Shown here: positions 3,667-19,090 of the stretch, one piece after another | Numbering within the stretch: position 1 is the stretch's first letter | Layout: each line of letters begins with the position of its first letter | Virus record (IMG/VR): IMGVR_UViG_3300032608_000348 | Reading direction: 5' to 3' (one strand) | Length of the DNA stretch: 20,000 bases | DNA from: an uncultured virus (IMG/VR IMGVR_UViG_3300032608_000348) | Taxonomy: Duplodnaviria; Heunggongvirae; Uroviricota; Caudoviricetes | Made by a program: the position numbers and the translations under genes | The notes under the pieces: generated by a model | Told to the model about the DNA's origin: nothing | What the model saw: only the letters and a program-made list of their open reading frames with translations | Databases searched by the model: none

Positions 3667-4089
3667 TTAGCACGCCTGTTCTAATGAGACGGCAAAAACA
3701 AGTGGAATCTTAAACCCATCAGGCTGTTGTCCCGCCCTAAAGCCTGGAGTCCCTACAACGATATGAGAGTTTTCATCACTCGTGCAAAACACAAAGGCAA
3801 ATAAATACCTGTCCAAATCTACATCGTCATCACCGCCGCCATACGCGATTTTCTCACCAAGATAGCAGATTCTGTCTGTGTGTGTACTCTTTGCCATTTC
3901 CTCTGCCCTACAGGCTACAATGATTCTCCGGCCTGGAAAGCAATTGTCCAGAGAGGATACCAATTCGTGAGTGTGTTTGCCGCCCATTTCCCAATTAGGC
4001 GGCAATCCTTCCTCATAACCTAATGCCAGTCTCATGGTTGAGATTGCTCTTGCACAACAGTTGTTGTCACTCGCCTGTGCTATTTTCAT
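3667..4089 (-). CDS. hypothetical protein, possible C39/papain-like cysteine peptidase
   Basis: first gene after the leftward promoter; N-terminal Q-x5-C (QASDNNC) and later HIVVG resemble C39-like catalytic motifs (by eye only). Confidence 0.5.
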   Translation of the reverse strand: MKIAQASDNNCCARAISTMRLALGYEEGLPPNWEMGGKHTHELVSSLDNCFPGRRIIVACRAEEMAKSTHTDRICYLGEKIAYGGGDDDVDLDRYLFAFVFCTSDENSHIVVGTPGFRAGQQPDGFKIPLVFAVSLEQAC

Positions 4090-4145
4090 TTGTCAATCTT
4101 CCTCTGGCGTCCCATCCTCTTTGATTGGTTTGTCCACCTGATGCT

Positions 4146-4174
4146 ATCATACCACACGCTGCTAGCTTTGTCAA
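4146..4174 (-). promoter_or_regulatory. sigma70-type promoter driving the left arm
   Basis: reverse complement TTGACA-17 nt-TATGAT with extended -10 TG. Confidence 0.85.
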
Positions 4175-5011
4175 TACTATGTGTTACACCAGTTTTTGTT
4201 ACCGCTATGGGGTTTCAACCCCTTGTGCACGCCGCGCGTCGCGCCAAGTTTTTTGGGCCACACCCCTGTGGCGGCAAGAAGGGTTGCAATCGCGCTGGCC
4301 ACAAGGATTGCGGTATGGCTCGGTCGCTATCATTGCGACTACCGCCCTTGCTATGGCAGGGAGAGCAACAGCGATTGCGACTGTGGCTGCTACTGCAACG
4401 CAAGTCAACTTCTGACTACATTGTTTATGTCAACCAGACTGTAAACTGGCGCAAGACCACTGCCAAGGGCAATAGAGATGTTGGTGTAGCAATGACACCA
4501 ACTACCGCTGCCAACCTGGTTGCAGACGTAGCCAGGCCACCAGGTTAGAATTTAGTGTATGCGTGACACTAAGCCTATCAGTAGCCACAACGTGTTTTGC
4601 AAAAGGCTTGCGCATAGTGATATAAGCACATGCAATTGCTAGCAAATTAAGGCTATTGGCACCAACAGCTACACAATAGCCTACACGTTAACGTTTAAGG
4701 GCGCTTTTTGTGGCCTGTTTCTAACACGGTAGCGTCTATTCAACAAACTGCATATACTCTTACACGGTAACGGATAAGAACTGGACAAAGCGACGGTAGA
4801 ATTTGGCAAACTGCAATGAGACATTGCCAAGATTGCGACGGCCGGTGCAATAGAATGTTGCAAGGCACAAGGCACAAGGGTGCTGGCAAGGGCTGTAGGG
4901 CCACAAAGAGGGCGCTTCTGCAATGCTTTATTGCAAGGCGGTGACAATCAAAGTGGTATTGACAGCAACCTTAAGGCTGGCAAGTGACACGCTTTCCTTA
5001 AGGTTAGGCTA

Positions 5012-5039
5012 TTGACAAAGCGCAATAATGTGCTACACT
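5012..5039 (+). promoter_or_regulatory. sigma70-type promoter driving the right arm and ncRNA candidate
   Basis: TTGACA-16 nt-TACACT with TGn extension; TATTGACAAAGC is shared with the promoter at 4146-4174. Confidence 0.75.
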
Positions 5040-5044
5040 TAAGT

Positions 5045-5600
5045 TGAAGGTGAAGGAAGGAAAGACAGGAACTTAAAAACTAGAAATAGAAAAACTCAAA
5101 ACTCTCAAGATAGGGAGAGGCGAACAGCCAAGGACCCGGGGCTCGCAAGAGAAGAGAAAAGGTAAACGAAGGGGAGGCTAACCGAAGGGGAGAGCAGAGA
5201 GGAATAAAATAACCGCAAGGCCGACAGACAGAGACGATGGAAGCGATTGGCCCGGAGACTTGGCGGTGACCTGAAAACTGGGAGAGACGCGCTGGCAACA
5301 GTGGAAACCTCTACCACCTAGTAAGAGAGCCAAGCAGCGTAACATACAATCGCGGATTCACCTGGGATAGGCCGACAGCGAGTAGCGAGAGAGTGAAGAC
5401 AGGCAAACTCATTACACTATTGTAACGGAGCTCAACTTGACATACTCCACACAATAGGAACGCAGAATGAGCGAGTTTGATTTCACTTTGGCGCACACAA
5501 ACGAAGAGGCGACAATTCCTGTAAAATAATAGACACAGGGGCAAGTCAAGCCAGGCTTGCATAGTTTGTGTGCAGCAAAGTGCGATCAAGCACTTGAGCA
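5045..5600 (+). ncRNA. large structured non-coding RNA candidate (family unassigned)
   Basis: no credible + strand ORF; nested helices 5243-5249/5347-5353, 5392-5397/5482-5487, 5404-5410/5473-5479, 5417-5423/5451-5457, 5493-5502/5564-5573; several GNRA-capped hairpins; sits right behind a promoter. Confidence 0.6.
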
Positions 5601-5634
5601 AAAAACAGAATCACAATCACATAAGGAGACGAAA

Positions 5635-5946
5635 ATGACAAGGAATAAGAGACTACTTCTGTTGAGCGTAGCACTATTGGCAATCGGACTGGGTAACGGC
5701 GCGTGCGGCGCGTCTGATGACTTGACAGTTGAGGCGGTAGTTGAGCACCAGACCGAGTCTGCGGAAAGCGGTGTAGAATGCGAGTACACGTTTATATCAA
5801 CAGAGATAAGCGTACGGCTAGCGCATTATCGTATCTGCGAAGATGACGATAATGACAAGCGTTTGGCCGCTTTGCAGAACGCTATAGATGATTGCGTGAA
5901 GGTGTGCGCTGATAACGCTGATTGCTTGGCGCAATGTGGCAAGTAG
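5635..5946 (+). CDS. putative lipoprotein
   Basis: TAAGGAG SD; basic n-region, hydrophobic h-region and GAC lipobox-like site (MTRNKRLLLLSVALLAIGLGNGAC). Confidence 0.7.
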   Translation: MTRNKRLLLLSVALLAIGLGNGACGASDDLTVEAVVEHQTESAESGVECEYTFISTEISVRLAHYRICEDDDNDKRLAALQNAIDDCVKVCADNADCLAQCGK

Positions 5947-6005
5947 TATATACACCGCCTGCGTGAGAGATTGCGCAGGCGGTACAGATCACAGGAGAGG
6001 ATAAA

Positions 6006-10064: not shown

Positions 10065-10320
10065 AGTACACGGCTGGCAAGTCCAGCCGATCAAGGGGCT
10101 TTCCCCTCCCCAGCTTGCGGTGACTGGAATACCAGACCAGTAGTCTCAACAAGACTGCCCAACAAGCCCGCAAAGGTAGCATACAAGCTGGGGTGGGGTG
10201 TGTCCCGATCACTAAAAGGGAGCGCCGTTCGATTCGGCACTGCGCATTGAACCTTTTGCGTCGCAGACAAACGGCTGTTAGGCCAGCATGCTGCCAGCGG
10301 GGCAGGCTCCTGATCCTGGA

Positions 10321-10346
10321 GAATCACTCCAGCGCTAGACAGATTT
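10321..10346. promoter_or_regulatory. Box A 26-bp palindrome, copy 2
   Basis: GAATCACTCCAGCGCTAGACAGATTT immediately before SD. Confidence 0.75.
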
Positions 10347-10360
10347 TGAGGAGGAAAATA

Positions 10361-10762
10361 ATGGGCAACTATGGCAATACCGCAGAGTTGAAAGTGACAA
10401 TCACGGGGCCACATGCGTATATGCTGGAACGCTATGCTGAAGTGCAAGAACTCCTTGCCCAGAAGATTAGCGCGGATTTATGGGATGTGATGGGGCAGGC
10501 CATTGGCACGACTGCGCCCGCCAACTACACTGTCAAGATTGAAAGTGAAGACTTGACCAGTGAAGCCAACGCAGGTGCAGTAGTTAAGAGCAATGAAAAC
10601 AAGGCGCTTTCTGATTGGCAGTGGCCCAAAAGCTGGCCTGTTGAACGTGACCAAGAGTTTGTGGAGTTTTGCCAATCGCTCGTCCGAGAACATGGCGAAG
10701 ACTTGAGCGCGTGTGATTATCAAGACATCAGGGACATTTTTGTGCAGTCTGGTGGATGCTGA
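10361..10762 (+). CDS. hypothetical protein; C-terminus shared with 13839-14207
   Basis: GAGGAGG SD ahead of MGNYGNTAEL. Confidence 0.75.
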   Translation: MGNYGNTAELKVTITGPHAYMLERYAEVQELLAQKISADLWDVMGQAIGTTAPANYTVKIESEDLTSEANAGAVVKSNENKALSDWQWPKSWPVERDQEFVEFCQSLVREHGEDLSACDYQDIRDIFVQSGGC

Positions 10763-12700: not shown

Positions 12701-13768
12701 ATGGCAACAATGTCACAACAAATTGAGAGTGTCACCGCCAGCCTAGGGATTCCTGTGCGGGTTGTGGGAGTCACTGATGCCGCGCAGGTGACCAAGTACC
12801 AGGTCAAGCCTCTGCCCCGCGTTCTGGCGTCTGGACGCAAGGGGAAAATGACCTATGTAAGCGCCATTATGACCAGGGCGCTTGACATCGGGGTTGGTCT
12901 TGGCGTGGAAAACGTCACGGTATCAGCGAACGGGCAACTCTTTATTGAGGTGCCCAAGTCCAAGCCGCAGGCTGTTTTTACGCCTGCGAGGGTATACACC
13001 AATGGTGAGGAGTTGCCCATCATGCTGGGCGTGGATACCGCCAATGAGCAAGTGATTCTTGACTTGGCAAAGTGTCCTCACCTGATGATAGCTGGTACAA
13101 CTGGCTCTGGCAAGTCAGTGTGCCTGACCAATGTGCTGACGGGCCTCATCAAGTACCGTGATGCCAGTCGCGTCCAACTGGTGCTTATTGACCTGAAGCA
13201 CACTGAGTTGAGCCAGTTTGCAGAAGTGGAGCACCTGGTCCGTGACGTAGCATATACAGCGGAAGAAGCAGAAGCAACCCTGTCCTGGCTGATGGCAGAA
13301 GTTGACCACCGCTACCGTATGATGAAGAAGCACGGGGCGCAAGACATCTCGGAAATCGCCAGCAACAGGATTGTGGTAGTGGTGGATGAATTTGCCAACC
13401 TGATTTTACAGGGAAGCAAAGAACTGAAGAAAAGGTTCATTCACATTGCCCAGGGCGGACGGGCTGCGGGCGTGCACTTTATCGTGGCAACTCAGCGCCC
13501 ATCCCGTCAAGTTGTGGATGGTCTTTTCAAGGGCAACTTTGCCACGAGGGTATGCTTCCGCACAGCGGACAAAACCAACTCCCGAATTGTTCTTGACCGG
13601 AATGGCGCGGAAGCGCTGATGGGCAAGGGCGACGGACTGCTATTGCACAATGGCAAGCCGCGTAGGTTTCAAGGCTTCATGATGCCTGACGCAGAGATAG
13701 CACGAGTGGTTGAGCGCAACCGTAAGCGCAATCTGGTGGGGCGCATCTGGAAGCGCTTGACCGGTTAG
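12701..13768 (+). CDS. FtsK/SpoIIIE-family ATPase (motor domain only)
   Basis: PHLMIAGTTGSGKS Walker A, VVVVDEFA Walker B, GRAAGVHFIVATQRPS, GAEALMGKGDGL. Confidence 0.93.
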   Translation: MATMSQQIESVTASLGIPVRVVGVTDAAQVTKYQVKPLPRVLASGRKGKMTYVSAIMTRALDIGVGLGVENVTVSANGQLFIEVPKSKPQAVFTPARVYTNGEELPIMLGVDTANEQVILDLAKCPHLMIAGTTGSGKSVCLTNVLTGLIKYRDASRVQLVLIDLKHTELSQFAEVEHLVRDVAYTAEEAEATLSWLMAEVDHRYRMMKKHGAQDISEIASNRIVVVVDEFANLILQGSKELKKRFIHIAQGGRAAGVHFIVATQRPSRQVVDGLFKGNFATRVCFRTADKTNSRIVLDRNGAEALMGKGDGLLLHNGKPRRFQGFMMPDAEIARVVERNRKRNLVGRIWKRLTG

Positions 13769-13838: not shown

Positions 13839-14207
13839 ATGAAAGATGAGGTTCTTTTTATTGAGGGCTGTCACGAAATGAAACGACCCGATAGTATACC
13901 TGAAAGCTGGACAATTTACAACGCGCCCCGCCCGCTGCTCGGTCACGAGAGATGGCAGGCCGGATTCCGGCATGGCATTTTCTACGCCGCTGTCACTCCT
14001 GTTGGTGACCCAGCCGATGAGTTCAACGATGCACCTGAGTTTCACAGGCGCAATCGTGAACTAGACGGGCATGTATGCGTGTGGATTGGCAAGGAGCACG
14101 TAATGGAGTATGGCAAGGCACTAGCTCGGGAATATAACGTAGACCTGAGCGAGTTTGATTACCAAGACATTGTGTGCAGCTTCTTGGATGACAGAAGCCG
14201 CAATTGA
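13839..14207 (+). CDS. hypothetical protein
   Basis: AAGGAG SD after Box C; C-terminus similar to 10361-10762. Confidence 0.75.
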   Translation: MKDEVLFIEGCHEMKRPDSIPESWTIYNAPRPLLGHERWQAGFRHGIFYAAVTPVGDPADEFNDAPEFHRRNRELDGHVCVWIGKEHVMEYGKALAREYNVDLSEFDYQDIVCSFLDDRSRN

Positions 14208-14589: not shown

Positions 14590-14918
14590 TACTAACACTG
14601 TACCGAAACTATGATACCACGCAGCCTGTGAAGTTTGAGGGACGGTCCAAAGAAGGATTGCTCTACAAGCTCCAGCAGTGGCTGGACAACGCCAACGGTG
14701 AGATTGACCACGGGAAACAGCGCCACAAGCCGCTTTGGGCGGATGGGCTTGCCATTGTCCCCAGCGGACGGGGGGCAATTGTACTGATGCGAAATGGCAA
14801 GAAATGGGAGGTTTGGAAAGGCGCAACGTCCAAGCCACTGGCGTCTGCAAGCTGGGTTATCGCTCGTGCTATTTTCCTGCACTATGCATACACCCACTGC
14901 AAGGAAGAAACCCCTTGA
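14586..14918 (+). CDS. hypothetical protein, paralog of previous gene
   Basis: ATGA overlap; MILTLYRNYDTTQPVKF. Confidence 0.8.
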   Translation: MILTLYRNYDTTQPVKFEGRSKEGLLYKLQQWLDNANGEIDHGKQRHKPLWADGLAIVPSGRGAIVLMRNGKKWEVWKGATSKPLASASWVIARAIFLHYAYTHCKEETP

Positions 14919-14949
14919 CAAAAGCGCAGAAATGTAGTATCATATACTA
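14915..14949 (+). promoter_or_regulatory. sigma70-type promoter overlapped by Box B
   Basis: TTGACA-17 nt-TATCAT; the -10 lies inside TGTAGTATCATATACTA. Confidence 0.75.
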
Positions 14950-15019: not shown

Positions 15020-15190
15020 ATGGAAAGGCAAGATTGTGAGTTTTGCAGAGAGACTGACGGGGAACATGCTTCTTGGTGTCCATATACGGTGGAAAGACAA
15101 GATTGTGGGTTTTGTGGCTGGACTGATGGGGAGCATGCCCCAGGCTGCCCACGCGACCCAGAGGAAAACGGCCTGAGCGGGGACTGGTAA
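15020..15190 (+). CDS. small protein with two tandem CxxC-H-C zinc-binding repeats
   Basis: AGGAGG SD; 69-bp period duplication ERQDCxFCxxTDGEHAxxCP. Confidence 0.75.
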   Translation: MERQDCEFCRETDGEHASWCPYTVERQDCGFCGWTDGEHAPGCPRDPEENGLSGDW

Positions 15191-15303
15191 AATCCAGCAC
15201 GCAGGCAAATGTGAGCGCTTACGGAGAACATCCGCAGATGGGGAGGCCAGATAGGGGGAACTGGCAACGCCAATCGTGAGAGCAAATCGTAAAGGAGCAA
15301 AAT

Positions 15304-17038: not shown

Positions 17039-17110
17039 AGGGGCGTAGTCCAACTGGCAGGACAGTGGCCTTTGAAGCCAAAGATGCAGGTTCAAATCCT
17101 GCCGCCCCTG
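17039..17110 (+). tRNA. tRNA-Gln(UUG)
   Basis: cloverleaf: acceptor AGGGGCG/CGCCCCT, D stem GTCC/GGAC, anticodon loop CTTTGAA, T arm GCAGG-TTCAAAT-CCTGC; no encoded CCA. Confidence 0.92.
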
Positions 17111-17139: not shown

Positions 17140-17168
17140 TTGACAGGAACAGGGAAGTGTGGTAAGAT
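17140..17168 (+). promoter_or_regulatory. sigma70-type promoter
   Basis: TTGACA-17 nt-TAAGAT with extended -10 TG. Confidence 0.85.
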
Positions 17169-17175
17169 AGGAACA

Positions 17176-17306
17176 GTTAGGGGGAGCTACGGCGCGGCAG
17201 ACGCCGGTGAAGAGGAGCGCTCGTGCGGAGCTTCGGGGACTCGAAAAGCCTGCCACTTCTCCGTGGCAAGGCTAGATGACAGGGGAAGGACCTGTCTCCC
17301 CCTAAC
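17176..17306 (+). ncRNA. structured small RNA candidate 1
   Basis: perfect 11-bp closing stem GTTAGGGGGAG/CTCCCCCTAAC starting at the predicted TSS, with three or more internal hairpins. Confidence 0.6.
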
Positions 17307-17318
17307 AAGTACAATCAA

Positions 17319-17422
17319 GATTCCCCGCGCTGTTTGAGACGGCGGTACGCTCAATAAAGAGCAGGGGCCTAGTTGGAAGAATGGGGAAAGGGAAAACCGG
17401 GTAGACGGCAGCGCGGGGAATC
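17319..17422 (+). ncRNA. structured small RNA candidate 2 / long inverted repeat
   Basis: perfect 14-bp stem GATTCCCCGCGCTG/CAGCGCGGGGAATC enclosing 76 nt. Confidence 0.5.
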
Positions 17423-17456
17423 CTGAAAAATCAACAAGGCAGGAAAGGAGCGCAAA

Positions 17457-17810
17457 GTGATAAGGTTCTACTGTGAAAGATGCGGGAAAGAGATGTGGGA
17501 ACTGGCAGAGGAACTAGCAGGATGGGATAGCCTCCGCCATATTCCGCTTGGTAAAGTAAAACAGTTGCTTGTCTGTTCTGATTGCTTGCTTGCTGAGATG
17601 CGCGGGGGCGCAGTGCCCGTGAAGGTGAAGAAAGCCCAATACGCAATCCAGTGGGTGGATGATGAGTGCGTAGGCTACCTGTGCGCCTGTGGAGAAAAAG
17701 AGGTGCTGATTGTGTCTATCTATGAAGATTCACCTGCGCATTGCCCGACGTGTGGGAGGGCCTATGTGCTGCGCCAGTCCAACACGGTAATAGAACTTGC
17801 TCACGCATAA
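17457..17810 (+). CDS. zinc-finger protein
   Basis: AAGGAG SD, GTG start; CERC, CSDC, CAC, CPTC. Confidence 0.7.
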   Translation: MIRFYCERCGKEMWELAEELAGWDSLRHIPLGKVKQLLVCSDCLLAEMRGGAVPVKVKKAQYAIQWVDDECVGYLCACGEKEVLIVSIYEDSPAHCPTCGRAYVLRQSNTVIELAHA

Positions 17811-18095: not shown

Positions 18096-18169
18096 CAGTC
18101 CAAGGTTCAGCGCAGCAAGTGTGCATAATCTGATTGTGCATACCACCTGCGCCGAACCAAGGGGGAAAG

Positions 18170-19090
18170 ATGACATTCAAGAAGTGGCCCAATATTGAGA
18201 ACCACTACCGGGACAAGTTCATCCAAGGAGTCCTTGACCAATATCCTGAATTGGCAGATGAGGAGTTCGTGATTACTGAAAAGCTACATGGCGCTTGCCT
18301 AACTTTGGTCTTCACGCCCCATGAATCAATGCGCGTCGGCAGCCGCAACCGCTTTCTTGAGCAAGGTTCCAGATTTTATGATGTCTGGAATACACTAGGG
18401 AAATATCAAGAGATGCTTGACCACTTCCAAGAATGCGTCAACTATCGTCCCGCTACTTACCGCTGGTTCGGGGAATACTTTGGGGGCAACGTCCAAAAGG
18501 GCGTCAACTATGGGCCTAGGCATCGCATCTTGTTTTTTGGGTTAATGGTTGATGACATTCTCACGCCTTTTAATATCACGGAAACCTATGCACAGGCGTG
18601 GGGCTTTCCACTTGTCCCCATTGTTGCGCGTGTCCAAGGACTGGATAGTGCCCTAGCAATAGACACGCGCTTCAATTCTCTCATTGGCATAGGCACGGAC
18701 AATCTCTGTGAGGGTGTGGTAATTATGCCAGCCAATGGGGTTTATCACTGGAATCACAGTATCTTTATGCTCAAGAAGAAGAATCCAGAATTTGCTGAGC
18801 GCCAAAAGTCCAAACGTCCAAAGATAGTTGATGATGAAGCCATGCGCCTAAATATGCTCTTCCGAGAATATATCACTCTCCCTCGATTGCAAGGAATCTT
18901 CTCAAAGTACGGGGAGATTCAAGAGCCAGCACAAATTGGGCAATTCATCCGCTGGATGCTGGAAGATGCGCTGGAAGACTTCCTCCAGGACTATGGTGAG
19001 GAGTTCGGTACAATGGACAAGAAACAGCAAAAGCAAGTGCTCAATGTCGGTGGTCTAATTGCTGACATGTTGAAGGGGGGATACTTATGA
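18170..19090 (+). CDS. rnl2: ATP-dependent RNA ligase, Rnl2 family
   Basis: N-terminus FKKWPNIENHY (T4 Rnl2-like), motif I EKLHG, GSRN, FGEYFG, EGVVI, motif V LKKKN-x-x-F-x-E, Rnl2-like C-terminal domain. Confidence 0.9.
   Translation: MTFKKWPNIENHYRDKFIQGVLDQYPELADEEFVITEKLHGACLTLVFTPHESMRVGSRNRFLEQGSRFYDVWNTLGKYQEMLDHFQECVNYRPATYRWFGEYFGGNVQKGVNYGPRHRILFFGLMVDDILTPFNITETYAQAWGFPLVPIVARVQGLDSALAIDTRFNSLIGIGTDNLCEGVVIMPANGVYHWNHSIFMLKKKNPEFAERQKSKRPKIVDDEAMRLNMLFREYITLPRLQGIFSKYGEIQEPAQIGQFIRWMLEDALEDFLQDYGEEFGTMDKKQQKQVLNVGGLIADMLKGGYL

Follow-up and report, generated by a model that had tools for sequence, protein, structure and literature searches.

A purine-rich tract and a folded module as a possible untranslated 5' leader of the first rightward operon in an apparent freshwater phage

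The stretch between the promoter at 5012-5039 and the first rightward gene, at 5635, is non-coding and consists of a purine-rich part followed by a folded part. We give roughly an even chance to the reading that it is an untranslated 5' leader of ~590 nt heading the first rightward operon, with the roles proposed below for the purine tract and for the folded module, and the choice of a leader over a free RNA is held more firmly than these mechanisms. Transcription would proceed from the promoter at 5012-5039, with a start near 5046, and read on into the lipoprotein-like gene at 5635. The suggestion of the sequence-only reading that this is the first transcript of the right arm is probably right, as the non-coding stretch directly follows a credible promoter.

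The window, meaning the whole 20,000-nucleotide stretch of DNA that was analysed, appears to belong to an uncultured freshwater phage. Besides the FtsK/SpoIIIE-like protein, the RNA ligase and the tRNA-Gln listed in Table 1, it encodes an LPD29-domain protein, and the remaining genes are small orphans. Cultured phages are all distant, the FtsK-like protein reaching 38% identity in its best match. Genes lie on the minus strand left of 4089 and on the plus strand right of 5635, and the 1.5-kb region between these divergent arms holds no convincing gene. Seven DNA runs, drawn from two studies of freshwater and viral metagenomes, contain the stretch, with no RNA run among them, and the four DNA runs that were compared (X3, X5, X6 and X7) have no differing bases. 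Regarding the first rightward gene, its lipoprotein-like product has relatives at 71% (P0002) and 49% (P0003) identity in the protein collection and no match in Pfam or PHROG.

Table 1. Positions of the features discussed in the text (window coordinates)
Feature	Position	Strand	Details
Promoter	5012..5039	+	TTGACA-16-TACACT, TG before the -10 hexamer; score 10/12
Purine-rich leader part	5046..5390	+	T-poor, G>C, mostly single-stranded, SD-like tracts; from composition and folding
Helix	5243-5249/5347-5353		GCGATTG/CAATCGC
Hairpin A, long irregular	5392..5487	+	base AGTGAA 5392-5397/TTCACT 5482-5487; top CTATTGT/ACAATAG
Helix	5404-5410/5473-5479		CAAACTC/GAGTTTG
Helix	5417-5423/5451-5457		CTATTGT/ACAATAG
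20-codon ATG ORF	5467..5529	+	longest in 5040-5634; within the folded module
Alternative 26-bp imperfect helix	5477..5589	+	arms 5477-5502/5564-5589; 5+7+10 bp, two 2x2 internal loops
Domain B, three-way junction	5493..5573	+	closed by a perfect 10-bp stem; hairpins 5517-5540 and 5541-5560
Helix	5493-5502/5564-5573		GCACACAAAC/GTTTGTGTGC; 10 bp, perfect
Hairpin C	5578..5595	+	AAGTGC/GCACTT; no U-run after it; absent from the terminator-like list
A-rich open translation initiation region	5601..5637	+	SD AAGGAG 5623-5628, ATG 5635
First rightward gene	5635..5946	+	103-aa secreted, lipoprotein-like; signal peptide, Cys after it, 4 further conserved Cys
FtsK/SpoIIIE-like protein	12701-13768		
tRNA-Gln	17039-17110		
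RNA ligase	18134-19090		

The promoter at 5012-5039, as claimed in the sequence-only reading, was recovered with a score of 10/12 and an extended -10, and it is believable because it is a member of a family. Four look-alike promoters occur in the window, at 4146-4176(-), 5010-5039(+), 14915-14943(+) and 17140-17168(+). Beyond the hexamers, TATTGACAAAGC, TTGACAAA(A)GCGCA..AATGT and GTGTGGTAWGATAG are each found twice among the four; the two copies of the 12-mer TATTGACAAAGC, one at the 5012-5039 promoter and the other (4165-4176(-)) at the divergent leftward promoter (4174-4146), are identical, and spacer motifs are common to the promoters at 14915-14943 and 17140-17168 and the two divergent ones. 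The scan found no other plus-strand promoter-like site between the 5012-5039 promoter and the gene at 5635. In addition, all four strong promoters carry an SD-like site of -7.9 kcal/mol or lower no more than 30 nt beyond the -10 hexamer; among 27-nt windows of the background, a fraction of 0.14-0.22 has such a site. This count is post hoc and made on n=4 promoters. A DNA pattern scan of IMG/VR with the promoter motif returned unrelated loci only; the promoter at 14915 has a look-alike in IMG/VR locus L012, where no related genes occur. Directly after the promoter at 14915 lies a small Cys-rich ORF (15021-15191) with a strong SD and an internal repeat, RQDCxFC...DGEHA..C, in two copies, which appears to be a genuine zinc-ribbon-like mini-protein.

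Between the two divergent promoters, the ~830 bp at 4176-5010 hold no convincing gene and fold with z = -2.9 on the plus and -2.6 on the minus strand. The sequence around 4200-4400 is GC-rich (0.60) with many inverted repeats, a GC hairpin followed by a T-run near 4225-4256 could end a transcript of ~100 nt, and there is a weaker plus-strand promoter-like site at 4121-4150, whose span overlaps with that of the leftward promoter. In run X3, the 61 bases of 4218-4278 have a match, with 10 differences, in a 244-nt contig from another organism, which diverges from the window on both sides of them; 4218-4278 is, as judged from this match, a short conserved island. Some 80-200 bp upstream of the rightward promoter, TGCAA-N7-TTGCA recurs as a 17-bp palindrome at 4812 (imperfect), 4846 and 4919, and these three may serve a phage regulator as operators; three of the seven TTGCAA occurrences in the window fall in 4501-5000.

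The stretch 5040-5634 is non-coding. It contains no plus-strand ORF of at least 100 aa, in agreement with the earlier claim that no credible ORF is present, and each of its three plus-strand frames is broken by mixed TAA, TGA and TAG, so that recoding opens none of them; stop-codon recoding was rejected on this mixture of stop kinds in every frame. The longest ORF, of 20 codons, has its ATG and its SD-like AGGAA inside the helices of hairpin A and is probably untranslated. A decayed gene was likewise rejected, as the 45 proteins of the window compared with 4090-5640 by tblastn gave E = 0.014 at best, the search space being tiny. On the minus strand, the 96-aa ORF at 5311-5601 has no relative but itself among 5.8 billion proteins.

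The folding signal has a narrower location than had been supposed. All five helices listed in the sequence-only reading are present where it had placed them, and stems are more frequent than in shuffles: counting pairing partners within 130 nt, 5040-5634 has 13 perfect stems of at least 6 bp compared to 6.15 +/- 2.44 (4 of 300 shuffles reach 13), and six of at least 7 bp compared to 1.41 +/- 1.23 (0 of 300), a 10-bp stem being seen in 4 of 300. The minimum free energy (MFE) of the whole stretch gives z = -3.65 on the plus and -2.11 on the minus strand. The comparison with shuffles, which had been proposed as a check, divides the stretch in two: 5385-5600 folds above chance, with z = -5.36 on the plus strand (0 of 200 shuffles as low), while 5040-5385 folds like shuffles (z = -0.22; 41 of 100 fold equally well). 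In a plus-strand scan with 200-nt windows and a step of 100, covering 182 of 199 windows, 5401-5600 has the minimum (z = -6.3) and the next lowest window lies inside the FtsK-like gene (z = -5.8), although a z-score on a single sequence cannot separate function from accident. Thus, nearly all of the signal comes from the 3' third, and the proposed ~550-nt highly structured RNA gives way to above-chance folding confined to the last ~210 nt (5391-5600). Six of the 64 module pairs on the plus strand are G-U and the minus strand of 5385-5600 reaches only z = -3.83 vs -5.36, which favours structure at the RNA level on the plus strand.

Other details of the earlier description fared unevenly. The helix CAAACTC/GAGTTTG was correctly located, but the pair probability of this register is 0.01, ViennaRNA preferring a neighbouring register within the same hairpin. 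The GNRA-capped hairpins are no signal, because GCAA is not enriched (5 and 6 per 500 nt vs 191 in 20,000 nt). The reported repetition of AGGCCGACAG amounts to two exact copies, or four with at most one mismatch where 1.2 +/- 1.0 are expected (6 of 200 shuffles), and that of CGAAGGGGAG is a real pair but has just two copies.

The folded module, at 5391-5600, is predicted to take two forms. In one of them, the top helix of hairpin A has pair probabilities of 0.87-0.94 and its base helix 0.42-0.47, the latter being low because the extended helix B competes with it; domain B, with pair probabilities of 0.99-1.0, is found in the MFE and centroid structures of every context folded. In the other, the 26-bp helix, 22 of whose 26 positions are paired (arms 85% complementary), extends stem B and excludes the hairpin A base and hairpin C. 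The fold forced to contain the 26-bp helix reaches -68.8 kcal/mol vs -68.9 for the MFE, 0.1 apart, with ensemble shares of 0.53 vs 0.45. The module would thus flip between hairpin A, junction B and hairpin C on the one side and the irregular 26-bp helix on the other, 35 nt upstream of a ribosome-binding site that is predicted to be open, the probability of being unpaired in the full-length context being 0.80 both for 5601-5637 and for the SD.

Regarding the end of such an RNA, 5040-5635 has one terminator-like site, a weak one at hairpin 5541-5560 (7 bp, tail ATAGTTTGTG), and the scan found no terminator at the 3' end before 5635, so that the own 3' end that marks a free-standing ncRNA gene was not found. 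Since no convincing terminator precedes 5635, a 5' UTR is the simplest reading. The expression platform of a riboswitch or attenuator was not found either, there being no convincing terminator and neither fold touching the SD or the AUG, and the module is probably not a ligand switch; without such a platform, its likeliest roles are processing, stabilisation or protein binding. A processing, stability or protein-binding element is accordingly what the module most likely would be, for instance an RNase III-type site setting the mature 5' end, by analogy with phage early leaders. The processing or stabilisation role is suggested by the resemblance of the 26-bp helix to the RNase III sites of those leaders, as the modelled helix has the form of such a site, an irregular double helix of ~20 bp or more.

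The module also has two exact matches elsewhere in the window, in the same order and on the same strand, of 15 nt (5468-5482/14146-14160) and of 11 nt (5566-5576/14170-14180), and 14146-14160 and 14170-14180 lie at the 3' end of the gene at 13839-14207. The motif concerned, LSEFDYQDIVCS, is also present near the end of 10193-10762. The matches between the module and 13839-14207 may be due to chance (E 0.009 for the 15-mer) or may be a trace of shared origin.

Upstream of the module, 5046-5390 is distinguished by its composition. It is 70% purine, with G 0.319, C 0.197 and T 0.104, and its first part, 5046-5240, is 76% purine (G 0.323, C 0.159, T 0.077) with a probability of being unpaired of 0.64-0.70. 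The purine maximum of the whole window (0.767) and its T minimum (0.067) both fall at 5051-5091, the purine mean of the right arm being 0.574 +/- 0.048. Eight SD-like sites lie in 5046-5390, or 2.32 per 100 nt vs 1.13 in the right arm, a doubled density that is expected from purine richness alone. The first of these tracts, GAAGGAAGGA, binds ACCUCCUUA with a predicted -7.9 kcal/mol, lies ~13 nt after the -10 hexamer and has no ORF starting after it, which is the sequence arrangement of a polypurine or STAB-SD 5' stabiliser.

A study of Bacillus subtilis (PMC13323073) describes Rho targets there as longer than 150 nt, with C>G and rich in T, and purine bias as keeping ribosome-free RNA from Rho termination. 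Both 5046-5240 and 5046-5390 have the Rho-evading composition given in that study (G>C, low T, more than 150 nt). This composition is the opposite of what Rho requires, so that a long ribosome-free RNA could form here without premature termination; 5046-5390 would act as an unfolded polypurine spacer, and the antisense strand of the tract would be an ideal Rho target. Meanwhile, ribosomes bound at an SD stabilise the mRNAs of phage SP82, gsiB and aprE, translation not being needed, according to the review PMC7509114. By analogy with polypurine and STAB-SD stabilisers, the binding of 30S subunits to the SD-like tracts near the 5' end may shield that end. A sponge for CsrA or Hfq was rejected, as the GGA count in 5001-5500 (16 per 500 nt) is inside the right-arm range of 6-21, and on this ground the sponge idea is kept only inside the reading, given below, of the tract as a platform for 30S subunits or a host protein.

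A second leader of similar kind lies further to the right. Right after the tRNA-Gln, the promoter at 17140-17168 (TTGACA-17-TAAGAT with TG) is followed up to the GTG at 17457 by ~285 nt of ORF-free, purine-rich sequence with z = -4.06. This sequence contains a perfect 14-bp helix (17320-17333/17409-17422), the pair GGGGGAG 17181/CTCCCCC 17296 and an SD-like tract at its 5' end, and has no match in Rfam. Its presence makes structured purine-rich leaders look like a habit of this phage and strengthens the reading of 5046-5634 as a leader over that as a unique ncRNA gene.

Searches for homologues returned little. With cmscan against Rfam 15 at gathering thresholds, only tRNA was found in the whole window, and at E up to 10 the region 4600-6000 gave four chance-level matches of 10-16 bits. 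Rfam thus offers no family for the stretch, ROOL, GOLLD, OLE, HEARO and the riboswitches included, even at E up to 10. The comparison of 4900-5700 with 50,697 phage records by blastn ('distant') gave no match, and in the searches of phage records, IMG/VR, GTDB and JGI no homologue of the RNA was found. In IMG/VR, the lipoprotein (alone and as a three-sequence alignment), the FtsK-like protein and the gene after the second leader led to no confirmed locus, and pattern scans for the CGAAGGGGAG pair and for the 10-bp stem pair returned unrelated loci. A 25-sequence alignment of a left-arm gene family led to two IMG/VR loci at 30-33% identity, both being co-directional gene arrays with neither a divergent region nor nucleotide similarity. 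Among the GTDB genome contigs, just a Bartonella FtsK was found, at 30% identity, the other two queries giving nothing.

Two JGI metagenome contigs, L003 and L004, carry relatives of the lipoprotein gene (54% and 39% identity), and a comparable leader is absent upstream of both. In L003, the relative is preceded by a paralogue with 40 nt remaining upstream of it to the contig end, and this locus therefore says little. In L004, a promoter-like region and a small helical ORF lie ahead of the relative. The non-coding sequence at 170-480 of L004, upstream of the relative, also carries an iteron-like repeat, GGTAACGAACC.G.TAATTTGG.TAGC, in three copies.

These results argue against the large ornate ncRNA like GOLLD or ROOL that had been suggested, as two thirds of the stretch fold like shuffles, no convincing terminator comes before 5635, and the downstream gene has relatives, in L003 and L004, without such a leader. 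A smaller version of that idea can be formulated, in which 5391-5600, alone or with the purine tract, would be a free-standing or processed trans-acting ncRNA of a third of the proposed size. It would account for the strongest folding signal in the window, for the preference for the plus strand (-5.36 vs -3.83) and for a three-way junction as well-defined as P = 0.99-1.0; given that Rfam has no match, it would be new, and the modelled 26-bp helix could be the RNase III site releasing it. We consider it unlikely, as the sequence has neither a terminator nor another defined 3' end, the RNA is absent upstream of the L004 relative of the gene, and no second copy occurs within the 20-kb window of one phage. 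The two exclusive folds, 0.1 kcal/mol apart and sharing the ensemble at 0.45 and 0.53 immediately upstream of the ribosome-binding site, also bring to mind a cis switch, responding to a ligand, to temperature or to a protein and controlling the lipoprotein operon. This is quite unlikely in our view: the SD and AUG lie outside both folds (0.80 unpaired), a convincing intrinsic terminator that could serve as expression platform is missing, riboswitch families are unmatched at E up to 10, and predictions from a single sequence often give alternative folds of nearly equal energy.

An inert spacer, in which the general purine bias of the sense strand is taken to an extreme without coding constraint and the hairpins are due to chance or are relics, has a small though appreciable probability. 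The right arm is purine-biased throughout (mean 0.574), no conservation was found, the relatives of the downstream gene lack the leader, and a coding window also reaches z = -5.8; against this, folding and stem counts are matched by 0 of 200 to 300 shuffles, 590 nt are costly in compact phage genomes, and a second, similar leader exists. The stretch might instead act as DNA, as a replication origin or an R-loop-forming primer region within a divergent control region, considering that the 1.5-kb gene-poor region between divergent operons is where the cumulative GC skew turns, that the purine/pyrimidine asymmetry of the strands is extreme directly downstream of the promoter, and that two short direct repeats are present. 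We regard this as highly improbable, since 5040-5634 contains no tandem or iteron array (the one repeat reported by TRF is a 19-nt CAAGGCA repeat at 4861-4879), no DnaA box with at most one mismatch occurs in 4000-5700, the two matches of the window lying elsewhere and below expectation, the skew turn coincides with the switch of transcription direction, and the strand-specific G-U pairs favour RNA.

A more far-reaching interpretation, to which we assign a low probability, takes 5391-5600 as a new two-state phage RNA class, which would serve as a switch sensed by a protein of the phage or of the host, or else act in trans after processing, joined to a 345-nt polypurine platform. The polypurine tract would bind 30S subunits or a host RNA-binding protein preferring GGA/A-R-N motifs, and the early leader would be self-protecting and would also titrate host factors as infection begins, 17170-17456 being its second instance.

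In several well-studied phages, early operons are headed by long untranslated leaders. To our knowledge, the escape of ribosome-free leaders from Rho and from decay at the 5' end has rarely been examined outside model phages. Read as a leader, the present stretch shows two parts with unusual clarity, first a polypurine tract of extreme composition and then a folded module with sharp boundaries, and the window has this design twice. If the readings of Rho avoidance and of a stabiliser are true, the purine-bias principle of bacterial genes would extend to phage leaders and would offer compact parts for expression design. As a case built on a single sequence, it is a lead rather than a discovery.

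Compared to known systems, the stretch shares with ROOL, GOLLD, OLE and HEARO, of which ROOL and GOLLD can be phage-borne, a non-coding length of several hundred bases without a known function, but it differs from them in having no model match, only ~210 nt folding above chance and no 3' end of its own. The resemblance to phage early leaders is closer. In coliphage T7, the promoters A1-A3 are followed by a long untranslated leader with the RNase III site R0.3 just before gene 0.3; likewise, strong promoter(s) of host type here open the early region, followed by several hundred untranslated bases and, immediately before the first gene, by an irregular double helix that makes about two turns. 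The sequences are unrelated, one promoter is present here compared to three in T7, the extreme purine content belongs to this leader, and RNase III cleavage is here inferred.

The polypurine 5' stabiliser of the Bacillus phage SP82 and the STAB-SD of the cry3A leader, reportedly the subject of Hue et al. in 1995 and of Agaisse and Lereclus in 1996, likewise place SD-like polypurine near the 5' end of a long leader with no start codon, and the SP82 case is, as here, a phage early RNA. Those systems have a single short tract, whereas ~345 nt are purine-rich here, with eight SD-like sites. In Dierksheide et al. 2026 (PMC13323073), Rho avoidance is described for bacteria with runaway transcription, in the coding genes of Bacillus subtilis and relatives; although the present case is a phage leader, it has in common with them ribosome-free RNA with G>C and low T and a pyrimidine-rich antisense strand.
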